From Nannocystis sp. ILAH1 (GTDB lineage Bacteria; Myxococcota_A; Polyangia; Nannocystales; Nannocystaceae), in contig NZ_JAPNKD010000018.1 in assembly GCF_026626585.1 (NCBI RefSeq), positions 75,718-139,717 on the forward strand: 64,000 nt of DNA. Reading direction: 5' to 3'. Of the stretch, positions 53,190 through 55,545 are shown in pieces. Position 1 is the stretch's first letter; every line of letters starts with the position of its first letter. The notes beneath the pieces are model-generated. The model ran no database searches, was not told the DNA's origin, and saw nothing but the letters and a program-made list of their open reading frames with translations. A program made the translations under genes and the position numbers.

Positions 53190-55545
53190 GCGCCGGGCCG
53201 CGCTGGCGCTGCTGCTGACGCTCGCCTGCGTCCCGCGCGGGCCGACGACCGCGGAGCCAGGTGCCCCCAAGGACATGTCCTTGGAGACATCCGGTGCGGC
53301 GGCGGTGGCGGCCTGCGACAAGCAGGCGAGCGCGGTCCAGGACGGGCTGGTGCGCCTCGCCGATCGCTACCTCTGGGAAGAGATCGAGCTGCTGGTCCAG
53401 GCCCACGCGGCGACCCGCGGCCGGCCCGACGCGACCCGCTGCGCCGAGGCGACCCGCGCAGCGCTGACGACCGTGACGCTGCGCTGGGCCGAGCAGGGGG
53501 CCGAGTCGGGCGGGTCGCAGAGCCACGCGCTGGCCCGCCAGGCCTACGCGGCGCTGCGCAAGCACTTCCCCGCCGAGGCCGAGGCGCCGCTGCTGCACCA
53601 CGCGATGGGCAAGCTCGAGTGGGCCCGCGCCGAGCGGCTGACGCTCGAGATCGGCGAGCGCACCTTGACCGACGAGGCGCTGCGCGAGGCCCACGCCCAC
53701 CACCGCGCCGCCCTGGCCGGCGGCCTGCCGACCGAGCAGGCCGCCCGCTCGGCCCGCGCCCAGCTCGACGCGGTCCGGCGCGTGCGCGAGGGGGAGCCTG
53801 CTCCATGGGTCATGTCTGAACAGACATGTTTGCCGGATCCGCGGGGCCGCTGCACCGACCCCGTCCCGCGCGTCGCCCCCGGCGAGATGACGGCCGGCGA
53901 CCGCGAGTGGCTGGCCGCCTACGACGCCTTCCTCGCCGAGCCCGGGCTGCAGGGCACGCCCGAGGCCGGGCAGGTCGCGGTCGAGCGGGCCGAGCTGCTG
54001 ATGCGATACCGCCGCTGGGACGAGGCCGAGACCAGCCTGAGCGCCGTCAGCGGGCCGGCGCGCGAGCAGGCGCGGGTGCTGCTGGTCGGCCTGCTGCTGG
54101 CGCGCTGGATGGAGGCCGCCAGCGCCGGCGAGCGCTCGGCCGCCCGCGTCGCCCTGGTCACCGTGGCCGTCGAGGTCGAGGCCGCCGGCGGGCCGCAGGT
54201 GGCCCAGGTGGCGGCGCTGCGGCGCGCGGCGCTGTGGGCCCAGGCCGAGGAGTCGGAGGCGGTCGGTGACGACGCCCGCTGCGGCGCGGCCTTCGAGGGG
54301 CTCTACGCCGACCTCGGCGCCGACATCCACGCGGCTGCCGAGGCGGCCGACGGCGCCGGTCGCTGCTACGAGCGCGCCGGCCTGACGCAGAAGGCGATCG
54401 ACTGGCTCGAGCGCATGGCCGACGTCCACCGCGAGGACCCGCGGGCCCCCGACGCGGTGCTGCGGCTGGCCCGCTTGCACGAGCGGATCTTGAACGACGA
54501 GCAGGCCCGCGATCGCTACCTCGATCTGGTGGCCCGCGCCCCGCGGCACCGCGCCGCAGCGACCGCTCGCCGCCGCTCGCTGATCCTGAGCCTGCGCGCC
54601 GGGACATTGCCCGAAGGACAGCTCGACGCGCTGATCCGCGGCCGCCCGGAGGAGCGCACGCTGGCGGCGGCGATCCAGTTCCGCGCGGTGTTCCGCCCCG
54701 GCGTCACGCCCGAGGCGGCCGAGAAGTACATCGAGCGGTTCGGCAAGGAGGGCGGGCCGCGGCGGCTGGCCATCGCCCACGCGCGCGCGGCCGAGGCGTG
54801 GCTGCGGGCGTCCTGCCCGGTCCCCGGGGCCGAGGGCCTGTGCGTCGAATTCGGCCGCGACCGCACGCCGGCGCGGGTGATCGCCCGCCTGCCCAAGCCG
54901 CACGCCAAGGGCCGCGAGCACCTCGACCGCGCGCAGAAGCTGTTGCCCGAGGTCAGCGGCGGCGAGGTCGACAAGCTCGAGGCGCCGATCGCCGTCGACG
55001 CCGAGGAGGCGCGGACCGCCAGCCGCCAGGTCGCGCTGCTGCAGGGCGACCTCGACGCCGAGTCGGCGCTCACCAGCCAGCCGCCGAAGAGCCTCGACCC
55101 GGCCCGCTCGCGCGCGTGGCTCGAGGTCCGCAAGGCCGAGGTCGAGCGCATGAGCGCGGTCTACGAGACCGCGATCGCGGGCGGGGCCGGCGGCCGCGAT
55201 CAGTCGGCGGCGCTGGTCGAGACCCGCAAGGCGCAGGTGTACGAGTCCGACCTGGCGCTGCTCGACGAGGTGGCCGCCGCCGTCGAGGCCGCCGGCGACG
55301 CCGGCCTGGCCCAGCAGATGCGCGAGCTGGCAGCCCAGCGCCGCGAGGCGGTGTTCACGGCCTACGCCCGCTGCCTCGACCACGTGGCCGCGTGGGGCCA
55401 CGACGCCGGAGGCCAGAGCGCCCTGTGCCGTGCAGGCCTCGGCCGCCTGGTCGGTCGCTACGAGGAGCCGCTGGAGTACGCGCCCGACCACGACGGACGG
55501 GTGATCGTCGGCGCGGCTGCGAGAGCGTCGGGCCCACCGCGATGA
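53176..55545 (+). CDS. large Ala-rich, alpha-helical (TPR-like) lipoprotein
   Basis: ATG at 53176 overlaps the kinase 3' end. [18 protein letters not shown] lipobox. 790 aa. Confidence 0.65.
53267..53284. repeat. perfect 18-bp palindrome CCAAGGACATGTCCTTGG inside the lipoprotein ORF (encodes PKDMSL)
   Basis: Direct reading. Confidence 0.7.
53811..53828. repeat. CATGTCTG-AA-CAGACATG palindrome inside the same ORF (encodes VMSEQTC)
   Basis: Direct reading. Confidence 0.6.

Follow-up and report, generated by a model that had tools for sequence, protein, structure and literature searches.

The window analysed here, i.e. the whole 64,000-nucleotide stretch of DNA from Nannocystis sp. ILAH1, contains two palindromic sequences inside a lipoprotein gene, the start of which overlaps the stop of an upstream protein kinase gene. 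The genes and the repeat units that we recognize at the two sites are as follows:

51306-53189, + strand: gene of a Ser/Thr protein kinase, lying upstream, with an uncertain start codon
53176-55545, + strand: host gene, encoding a 789-aa all-helical TPR-like lipoprotein with a signal peptide and Cys
53271-53280: site 1 unit 1, core GGACATGTCC with CATG at 53274, the centre of the 18-bp palindrome 53267-53284; flank matches 6/6
53285-53294: site 1 unit 2, decayed, AGACATCCGG, with CATC at 53288, exactly +14 bp from the unit 1 CATG
53808-53817: site 2 unit 1, GGTCATGTCT, with CATG at 53811
53822-53831: site 2 unit 2, AGACATGTTT, with CATG at 53825, exactly +14 bp from the unit 1 CATG

The palindromes reported in an earlier note on this DNA are exact in sequence, and both lie in frame in the ORF 53176-55545, encoding PKDMSLE and WVMSEQTCL, respectively. 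Site 1 (CCAAGGACATGTCCTTGG, exactly at 53267-53284) is a perfect 18-bp palindrome, whose outer CCAA/TTGG arms are peculiar to the ILAH1 genome. Site 2 (CATGTCTGAACAGACATG, 53811-53828) is imperfect, with 8-nt arms flanking a non-palindromic AA (CATGTCTG-AA-CAGACATG); regarded as a stem-loop, it has a 7-bp stem and the loop GAAC. The suspicion that the gene model is wrong is contradicted by the GC3 of 0.9-1.0, maintained in a single phase through both sites, by the orthologues, by the identity of the 789-aa product to WP_267745792.1 (Nannocystis sp. ILAH1), and by the AlphaFold model, which is helical, with a mean pLDDT of 83.6 and a pTM of 0.59. According to this model, site 1 falls in a predicted disordered linker and site 2 in an inter-domain loop. 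The idea that the palindromes mark domain boundaries is therefore roughly correct, while a gene boundary is rejected on the four grounds just given; the suggestion that the elements tolerate being translated is supported, as both are translated in frame, at linker or loop positions of a genuine gene. In the N. punicea orthologue, the current annotated start is the ATG within site 1. A scan of the 49-59 kb region for Sigma-70 promoters found none, and no Rfam family was detected within the whole window.

Palindromy alone was rejected as a signal, since perfect 18-mer palindromes (3 in the window versus 1.65 in Markov simulations) and 8+2+8 palindromes (11 versus 4.9) are only about twice as frequent as simulated. 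Searching for sequences within 3 mismatches of site 2 (CATGTCTGNNCAGACATG) recovered site 2 alone, and the family is therefore defined by its core and phase rather than by similarity of the whole element. It is this membership (core, phase, rare codons and conservation), and not palindromy, that makes the sites credible: the core RRR-CATG-YYY and the 14-bp distance are present at both of them, site 2 being a two-unit array and site 1 one intact and one decayed unit. Their description as members of a palindromic repeat family thus stands, with the other copies otherwise extragenic; the location typical of the family, in non-coding DNA just downstream of a gene end, is not shared by the two sites, both of which lie inside the ORF. 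In the 64 kb of the window there are 7 arrays, approximately one per 9 kb. The extragenic copies are:

590-659: 5-unit array, flanked by convergent genes; TTTTT follows a 14-bp stem made of units 1-2
21239-21266: 2-unit array, extragenic
24528-24541: single unit, extragenic, atggaCATGtcttc
44389-44416: 2-unit array, extragenic, between convergent genes
50689-50758: 5-slot array (4 CATG, 1 decayed) between convergent DUF3089 and GNAT genes
55702-55785: 6-unit array, bordered by the lipoprotein gene and, in convergent orientation, by the TPR gene 55796-56908; TRF period 14
58203-58230, + strand: 2-unit array that is a canonical terminator stem, ACGGCCATGTCC-ATGA-GGACATGGCCGT followed by TTTTT
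58274-58287: single unit, extragenic, acggaCATGtcctc

A few arrays bear signs of recent unit duplication, e.g. 55721-55768 (detected by TRF) and L081.

The family unit comprises the 10-bp core RRR-CATG-YYY, GGACATGTCC at its best, and four variable, A/T-enriched bases. In the logo (GG[AG]CATG[TC]CC + N4), CATG is the sole invariant part, the RRR/YYY flanks are conserved too, and the positions beyond the 10-bp core are near-random. The sequence GACATGTC occurs 7 times in comparison with 0.88 expected, a number reached in 0/100 shuffles. The arrays contain 2-6 units with a CATG period of exactly 14 bp, at which three units correspond to four helical turns, and among ~96 arrays none is longer than six slots. 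In the window, CATG pairs spaced by 14, 28, 42 and 56 bp number 15, 9, 6 and 4, respectively, versus ~0.7 for other spacings, and the same phase holds at loci L001-L004. Because adjacent spacers are as unlike as random pairs (similarity of 3.91 versus 3.92 of 10), recent tandem duplication does not account for the phase, and a plain minisatellite origin is rejected in general. Orthologous intergenic arrays have unalignable spacers and identical phase. The literature on Nannocystis repeats, on myxobacterial REPs and on the motif itself yielded nothing relevant (the matches to GACATGTC being p53 sites or primers), and we found no prior description of a phased CATG repeat family.

Among the matches listed when 185,579 species genomes were scanned for five CATGs at period 14, arrays with variable spacers come from five Nannocystis species only, and all the remaining matches are tandem repeats of identical units; in Paraliomyxa and Enhygromyxa (single loci of ~20 kb each) d14 is 0. 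Judged on this sample of matches, the family appears to be restricted to Nannocystis. With few exceptions, its arrays follow immediately upon the 3' ends of genes, which hold 41 of the 51 classifiable arrays of at least 3 units: 17 lie between convergent genes, 15 just past a gene on the + strand and 9 just past one on the - strand, with a single upstream-only case and none between divergent genes. Intragenic copies are unusual, as the earlier note had stated, with ~3 independent cases versus ~85 extragenic arrays in ~370 kb of sampled Nannocystis DNA, much of which was chosen for bearing 5-unit arrays. Besides the sites described here, they include a 5-unit array in a linker of an FAD-dehydrogenase gene (L007 3315-3374) and a 3-unit array within another lipoprotein gene (L077).

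The codons at the two sites are rare ones: TCT (1.4% of Ser), GAA (6.6% of Glu), ACA (2.9% of Thr), TGT (11% of Cys) and TTG (5% of Leu), and at 53797-53836 8 of 14 codons end in A or T, compared to 5% gene-wide. The CATG of site 1 is retained in 8 of 9 orthologues from the Nannocystis clade, and one of these is altered on both sides and still palindromic (GGGCATGCCC). The slot at +14 reads CATC, CAGG or CAGC in every orthologue that retains unit 1, and the rare codon ACA (53287) is retained in 3 genomes. At site 2, the C-ATG of unit 1 is present in 7 of 9 orthologues, the other two having CTG, and the rare codon pair ACA-TGT of unit 2 is found in all 9, at 64-100% amino acid identity. In L003 the peptide MSEQT is replaced by MAKET, yet both CATGs are still 14 bp apart. 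Orthologues retain only ~30% of the A/T-ending codons of the window, the majority of these at the two sites or in the cluster at 54604-54618. The nucleotides of the sites are held by selection, in opposition to a very strong GC3 codon bias.

In our view, both palindromes are conserved intragenic copies of a family of phased palindromes that is apparently restricted to Nannocystis, and we propose that they are read at the DNA level as a gene-end element, a reading to which we assign a probability of roughly 0.55. The core and the phase would be recognized on the DNA by a putative sequence-specific protein, with a dimer on each core and as many as six dimers side by side, and adjacent units could additionally pair as hairpins. 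The array would then serve as a direction-independent gene-end element, i.e. a roadblock, a terminator or a signal protecting 3' ends, and where genes abut without a spacer it may be written into the nearest tolerant protein segment by synonymous and conservative substitutions, as possibly at sites 1 and 2 and in the 5-unit array of the FAD-dehydrogenase. Site 1, the CATG of which is 85 bp past the kinase stop, may be the end element of the kinase gene; in orthologues of 45% identity, a 3-unit array occupies a 37-bp gap between the kinase stop and the lipoprotein start, and none is present inside the gene. Site 2 is not explained by this logic, because it is 620 bp from any gene end; it could be an additional site of the same kind, internal to the lipoprotein gene, where it would modulate transcription or the fate of the mRNA.

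The high copy number and the position of the arrays, past the 3' ends of genes and in the gaps of convergent pairs, also speak for REP/BIME-like elements, selfish or acting as hairpins at the RNA level, which is a possible but doubtful explanation. The unit would then be the two-unit hairpin CATGYCC-N4-GGRCATG, the arrays would be clusters of hairpins that stabilise or terminate transcripts, and the intragenic copies would be tolerated passengers or weak mRNA hairpins. Adjacent units of 2-unit arrays indeed pair beyond partner-shuffled controls (2.89 versus 1.68 +/- 0.20 extra bp), arrays of five units show pairing of 1-2 and of 4-5 but not of 2-3 or 3-4, the intergenic arrays fold with z-scores of -3.3 to -4.1, and two arrays of the window form textbook terminators with a hairpin and a T-run (590-621 and 58203-58230, the latter hairpin being conserved in L001 and L002). 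Because of the excess pairing and the strong folding, a hairpin mechanism (RNA or cruciform) may be primary. On the other hand, covariation at single positions is near independence, and hairpins require neither an exact 14-bp phase nor an invariant CATG. A directional RNA hairpin or terminator was rejected, as there is no strand asymmetry in folding (-26.3 kcal/mol for sense versus -26.0 for antisense, p=0.69) or in T-runs (10 versus 10 in the two orientations, with T4 runs in only ~20% of arrays), nor is there an excess of G.U over A.C pairs. The terminator scan detected no intrinsic terminator at site 1 or site 2, with only TTT after the latter. At site 2, a strong hairpin is confined to the window and L001, with a weak one or none in L002-L004, which argues against a hairpin at this site; in particular, L003 has lost the hairpin and retained both CATGs with their spacing. 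REP/BIME elements of enterobacteria and Pseudomonas are RAYT-associated; as described (PMC2817692, PMC3733652), they resemble the Nannocystis family in being short, palindromic, abundant, extragenic units, located 3' of genes or between convergent genes, in regularly spaced, hairpin-capable clusters of which some copies double as terminators. The epithet "REP-like" used in the earlier note is hence apt for location and copy number, but the Nannocystis core is only 10 bp long and itself a perfect-type, CATG-centred palindrome, the logo has no GTAG/CGTC head at the unit end, the strict 14-bp period with up to 6 units seen and with spacers unrelated in sequence is foreign to REPs, and the intragenic copies arise by substitution, without the change of length that the arrival of a mobile element would bring, and are then conserved. 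REPs are imperfect palindromes of 20-40 bp; in Nannocystis, single units are 10 bp long and two-unit hairpins span 18-30 bp.

The earlier note spoke of 6-aa insertions and suggested aligning orthologues to see whether they are lineage-specific. An insertion is not supported at either site. The six residues of site 2 are indeed lineage-specific in sequence, but relative to the orthologues of 45% identity they replace residues between the invariant W211 and C218 rather than add to them, and no indel is present there in any of 21 homologues. The arrival of a mobile palindromic element in frame, by analogy to the Rickettsia palindromic elements (RPE), would agree with the otherwise extragenic distribution of the family and with the site 1 linker, which exceeds that of distant orthologues by a few residues; RPEs and intragenic MITEs are likewise translated in frame in permissive parts of proteins (PMC10969869). 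Nonetheless, RPEs are insertions of ~150 bp that add a peptide, whereas the Nannocystis elements take up 10-28 bp and re-spell residues of the host; single 14-bp units cannot insert in frame, extra residues are absent both from site 2, where the idea is already contradicted, and from the intragenic 5-unit array of L007, the linker of which has an unchanged length in comparison with 20 orthologues, and we regard this as the least probable of the explanations. It is very improbable, too, that the sites are clusters of rare codons that slow ribosomes at domain boundaries for export or folding and resemble the repeat incidentally. Both do lie in linker or loop segments, and the codons around site 2 are predominantly A/T-ending, but rarity would permit any rare synonym, whereas the retained letters spell RRRCATGYYY at a 14-bp phase, the CATGs persist where the residues change (L003), and non-coding DNA is filled with the same motif and phase. 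Clustered CATG methylation sites, served by an orphan or restriction-modification-linked methyltransferase and a reader, could provide epigenetic marks by analogy to the Caulobacter CcrM repeats. The invariance of CATG alone within the unit and the apparent strand symmetry of the function would suit such marks, for which a review of MITEs gives the CcrM-associated intergenic repeats of Caulobacter as a precedent; we nevertheless consider them very unlikely, as the RRR/YYY flanks are conserved beyond the needs of a 4-bp methylase and elsewhere CATG shows no depletion (3.4 per kb versus 2.65 expected from base composition).

The reading of the arrays as gene-end elements on the DNA invites comparison with two further kinds of systems. 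Uptake sequences (DUS of Neisseria, USS of Haemophilus) are short, lineage-specific motifs, selected for a single purpose, that are abundant as inverted pairs in terminators and also occur within genes; however, they are not known to be palindromic or phased, and nothing connects the arrays of Nannocystis with DNA uptake. The tandem operators of small dimeric repressors, such as the met-boxes of MetJ, the heptads of omega and the iterons of ParR, are short, often palindromic units with a fixed period, bound by cooperative rows of dimers, but these are limited to a single locus or a handful of loci, in promoters or centromeres, unlike the arrays described here, which recur about every 9 kb at gene ends. 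Neither a strict phase of 14 bp, nor an apparent maximum of six units, nor an intragenic origin without a change of length is a known feature of REP/BIME, MITE or terminator families. It is tempting to consider a gene-end signalling system of Nannocystis, in which up to six phased palindromes would be read symmetrically on the duplex by a putative oligomerising protein, and in which selection would be so strong that the array is written into linkers when intergenic DNA is absent; we hold this wider scenario to be a serious possibility, short of an even chance.

One stretch of DNA would thus bear two messages, the protein code and the letters of the repeat kept against codon preference. If this is true, the sites offer a clear natural example of overlapping codes, with a non-coding DNA signal maintained in frame despite a GC3 bias of ~97%, among the strongest codon biases known. 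The family would also constitute a lineage-specific, easily spotted gene-end mark in the large (11-13 Mb) genomes of Nannocystis, which could improve their annotation and aid the engineering of these natural-product producers, and it would provide a handle for finding the array-reading protein, with a 70-bp synthetic array as bait.

A Myxococcus LexA box in the spacer of site 2 (CTGAAC) was considered and dropped, as comparison by eye with the consensus gives three mismatches, including the terminal AG. The geometry here is TGTC-N6-GACA, where sites of the CRP/MrpC type have N8.

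The earlier note had described two palindromes in a lipoprotein gene, and this observation as a whole was confirmed. Site 1, CCAAGGACATGTCCTTGG at 53267-53284, is a perfect 18-bp palindrome, and site 2, CATGTCTGAACAGACATG at 53811-53828, comprises 8-nt complementary arms flanking AA, equivalent to a 7-bp stem with the loop GAAC; positions and sequences are exact, and both sites are in frame within the plus-strand ORF 53176-55545, with the translations PKDMSLE and WVMSEQTCL. Judged as palindromes alone they are unremarkable (the window contains three perfect 18-bp palindromes vs. 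1.65 in Markov simulations, and eleven of the 8+2+8 type vs. 4.9), and their reality rests on other evidence. The octamer GACATGTC occurs seven times in the window vs. 0.88 expected, a count reached in none of 100 shuffles. Among all 218 CATG sites of the window, distances of 14, 28, 42 and 56 bp occur 15, 9, 6 and 4 times, respectively, vs. about 0.7 times for each remaining distance within 60 bp. The logo of 60 units, nn-G-G-[A/G]-CATG-[T/C]-C-C-nn, comprises a 10-bp palindromic core and four variable, A/T-enriched bases. The arrays and good single units in the window are as follows.

Arrays and single units in the window (coordinates are positions of CATG in each unit)
595-651, array of 5 units
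21244/21258, array of 2 units
44394/44408, array of 2 units
50694-50750, array with 4 CATG in 5 slots
53811/53825, array of 2 units (site 2)
55707-55777, array of 6 units, for which TRF also reports period 14
58208/58222, array of 2 units
53274 (site 1), 24533 and 58279, single good units

In the light of the unit logo and the CATG chains, the "palindrome" of site 2 is therefore a pair of neighbouring units, GGTCATGTCT and AGACATGTTT, with GAAC between them. Site 1 is one perfect unit, GGACATGTCC, followed at exactly +14 by a decayed one, AGACATCCGG; its outer arms (CCAA/TTGG), the source of the perfection of the 18-mer, are found in the ILAH1 genome only, as compared to the orthologues.

The suggestion that the gene model might be wrong has to be rejected. 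Third-position G+C stays at 0.90-1.00 in a single phase from ~53190 to 55470 (the window has 70.9% G+C) and dips at the two sites only, to 0.80 around 53730-53849. At 789 aa, the product equals WP_267745792.1 of Nannocystis sp. ILAH1 residue for residue, with the same annotated start, and has 21 homologues (91% in N. punicea, 85% in N. radixulma); the AlphaFold2 model, built from an alignment of 22 sequences, is all-helical, with a mean pLDDT of 83.6. The N-terminus carries a lipoprotein-type signal (…LLLTLAC…) conserved family-wide, and Pfam gives only a TPR match below the threshold. With both sites translated in frame in a genuine gene, the idea that such elements are tolerated in translation is supported, as is their proposed proximity to domain boundaries: in the AlphaFold2 model, site 1 (residues 31-36) falls in a disordered stretch following the lipobox (pLDDT <50), and site 2 (residues 212-218) in the non-helical segment 204-239, which separates an N-terminal helical domain from TPR-like repeats. 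The N. punicea orthologue (locus L001, 9902-12271) is annotated with 756 aa, starting at the ATG within the site 1 unit; since the conserved signal peptide and lipobox (MARRERRLALALLAAVSC…) are encoded from an in-frame start further upstream, the annotated gene probably lacks its first 33 codons. The same Met is the start in two metagenome gene calls (P0008, P0010).

The six-residue insertions postulated by the earlier note are likewise rejected: an alignment of 22 proteins has no gap at site 2, where the invariant residues W211 and C218 enclose six residues in either clade, VMSEQT-like in that of Nannocystis and DPxPWL-like in the distant one. Judging from the orthologous sequences, sites 1 and 2 are under selection at the nucleotide level. 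Across nine clade members (64-100% amino acid identity) the codon pair ACA-TGT of site 2 is present in all nine, the first C-ATG in seven (CTG in the other two), and the distance between the two CATGs is always 14 bp; in the metagenome contig L003 the peptide is now MAKET and the DNA is still GACATGGCGAAAGAGACATGTG. The codons involved are rare (ACA 2.9% of Thr, TGT 11% of Cys, TCT 1.4% of Ser, GAA 6.6% of Glu), and A or T is the third base in 8 of the 14 codons at 53797-53836, vs. 5% of codons gene-wide. Of the A/T-ending codons in the window, orthologues keep only ~30%, for the most part those at site 1, site 2 or a cluster at 54604-54618. The CATG of site 1 is present in 8/9 orthologues, one of which has both flanks altered and the palindrome preserved (GGGCATGCCC); the +14 slot reads CATC, CAGG or CAGC throughout.

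The third conserved rare-codon cluster of this gene (54601-54621, GGG ACA TTG CCC GAA GGA CAG) is identical in the window, N. punicea and N. radixulma, with one or two changes in the metagenome contigs L003 and L004. Its sequence, gggaCATTgcccgaaggaCAGC, contains two GGACA half-sites at a distance of 14 bp and resembles a two-unit element that has decayed; the window has two matches to GRACA-N9-GRACA vs. 0.19 expected.

Intragenic copies are indeed unusual, as had been remarked, with about three independent cases vs. about 85 extragenic arrays in our sample. In N. bainbridge (NZ_JAQNDL010000003.1, locus L007) a full five-unit array at 3315-3374 lies within the gene of an FAD-dependent dehydrogenase (3120-4721), with continuous GC3 on either side, and encodes …HVGKDMPEAPCYLPHVLPNMSQEP… in the linker preceding the GxGxxG motif. 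This linker is equally long in 20 orthologues of other genera, Enhygromyxa and Paraliomyxa included; therefore the array was written by substitutions, and an origin by insertion is ruled out. Another N. bainbridge locus (L077) carries a three-unit array (4444-4475; …RTWLSEHVPEDMLGG…) inside the ORF of a 471-aa lipoprotein (3789-5204).

The family appears in the orthologous loci of N. punicea, N. radixulma and the two metagenome contigs with 12, 17, 6 and 4 CATG pairs at 14 bp, respectively, vs. 0.04-0.6 at other spacings, and the orthologous loci of 45% identity (L005, L006) carry a few arrays. In a scan for five CATGs with a 14-bp period, which drew on one genome for each of 185,579 species, at least 110 stretches matched; among the matches listed, at least ~27 come from five Nannocystis species and have GGRCATGYCC cores with unrelated spacers, and all those from outside Nannocystis are ordinary tandem repeats of identical 7- or 14-bp units. 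No 14-bp CATG pairs were found in one ~20-kb locus each of Paraliomyxa and Enhygromyxa, both Nannocystaceae. Arrays of at least three units in ~370 kb of Nannocystis DNA lie between convergent genes (17), directly after a plus-strand (15) or minus-strand gene (9), between tandem genes (4) or upstream of a gene only (1), and none lies between divergent genes. Arrays have two to six unit slots, and 0 of ~96 is longer. A degenerate array at another locus (L118, 5293-5354; ggaCAGGgcggtcgggaCAGGgcgcgagggcCATGtccc) keeps the 14-bp phase with CAGG instead of CATG, which suggests that the GGACA half-site may outweigh the full CATG in importance. At 9800-9990 of the N. radixulma locus (L002), the kinase-lipoprotein spacer, absent in the window and 280 bp long here, contains two copies of a ~70-90 bp repeat. 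Each copy starts with cagg[g/a]CATGtccgt[a/g]aagcc…gcgacctg[c/t]catcgcgcg, and the repeat is a longer, composite element that includes units of the family.

Several results speak for pairing between adjacent units. Intergenic arrays fold well as single strands (z from -3.3 to -4.1), and adjacent units pair over more extra bp than partners shuffled among arrays, both in two-unit arrays (2.89 vs. 1.68 +/- 0.20) and in longer ones (1.95 vs. 1.43 +/- 0.10); in five-unit arrays pairing is seen for units 1-2 and 4-5 but not for 2-3 and 3-4, and two window arrays (590-621 and 58203-58230) are textbook terminators with a hairpin and T-run. However, covariation at single positions is near the level of independence, the sense strand folds as well as the antisense strand (-26.3 vs. 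-26.0 kcal/mol, p = 0.69), T-runs accompany only ~20% of arrays, with equal orientations (10 vs. 10), and a hairpin requires neither the invariant CATG nor the exact 14-bp register. A minisatellite origin would give similar neighbouring units, but adjacent spacers are as alike as random pairs (3.91 vs. 3.92 of 10). Orthologous intergenic arrays share core and phase, with unalignable spacers, between species with ~91% identical coding DNA. We therefore favour a strand-symmetric, DNA-level reader of the arrays, putatively a protein, with hairpin formation as a presumably frequent secondary or additional property. Such a reader would bind as one dimer per palindromic core, arrayed cooperatively, three units corresponding to four helical turns.

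The arrays most likely mark gene ends. Upstream of the lipoprotein gene lies a Ser/Thr kinase gene (Pkinase, 6.2e-35), whose stop codon (53187-53189) overlaps the lipoprotein start, which leaves no spacer in ILAH1. Site 1 is 85 bp past this stop, in what may be the first protein segment free to vary, and distant orthologues have a three-unit array in a 37-bp kinase-lipoprotein gap and no arrays in the gene interior; we therefore infer that site 1 is the end element of the kinase gene, embedded in the next gene. N. radixulma has site 1 as well as the unit-filled spacer of 280 bp. Site 2 is without a gene-end rationale; it may be an internal site for the same putative reader, acting in attenuation, pausing or mRNA processing, or have another role.

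The Nannocystis arrays resemble REP/BIME elements in location, abundance, clustering and hairpin potential. However, the latter (PMC2817692, PMC3733652) consist of units of 20-40 bp that bear a GTAG/CGTC head, which the Nannocystis unit logo lacks, and have a cognate RAYT transposase and no strict short period. The classic translated palindromic repeats, the Rickettsia palindromic elements, are ~150-bp insertions (PMC10969869), whereas nothing was inserted at the Nannocystis sites. No description of these arrays was found in the literature searched. Short extragenic palindromic repeats are the best category for this family, as a variant that stands out by its 14-bp phase, an apparent limit of six units per array and the creation of intragenic arrays in situ.

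The window also contains a 45-bp tandem repeat (TRF, 57885-58091; 4.5 copies, 91% matches) in a small ORF without a Pfam match (57657-58157), which would encode a 15-residue protein repeat, and 21-bp tandem repeats in coding-type DNA at 267-430 and 18716-18800 (6.8 and 4.0 copies), whose translation would give peptide repeats of heptad length. A VgrG-like gene (Phage_GPD 7e-84, Gp5_trimer_C, Phage_base_V) and then a PAAR gene (2e-22) occupy 60528-63305; in the syntenic loci of N. punicea and N. radixulma the genes that come after such a pair have weak or faint Imm71/Imm72 matches, which would fit an effector-immunity module of type VI secretion.
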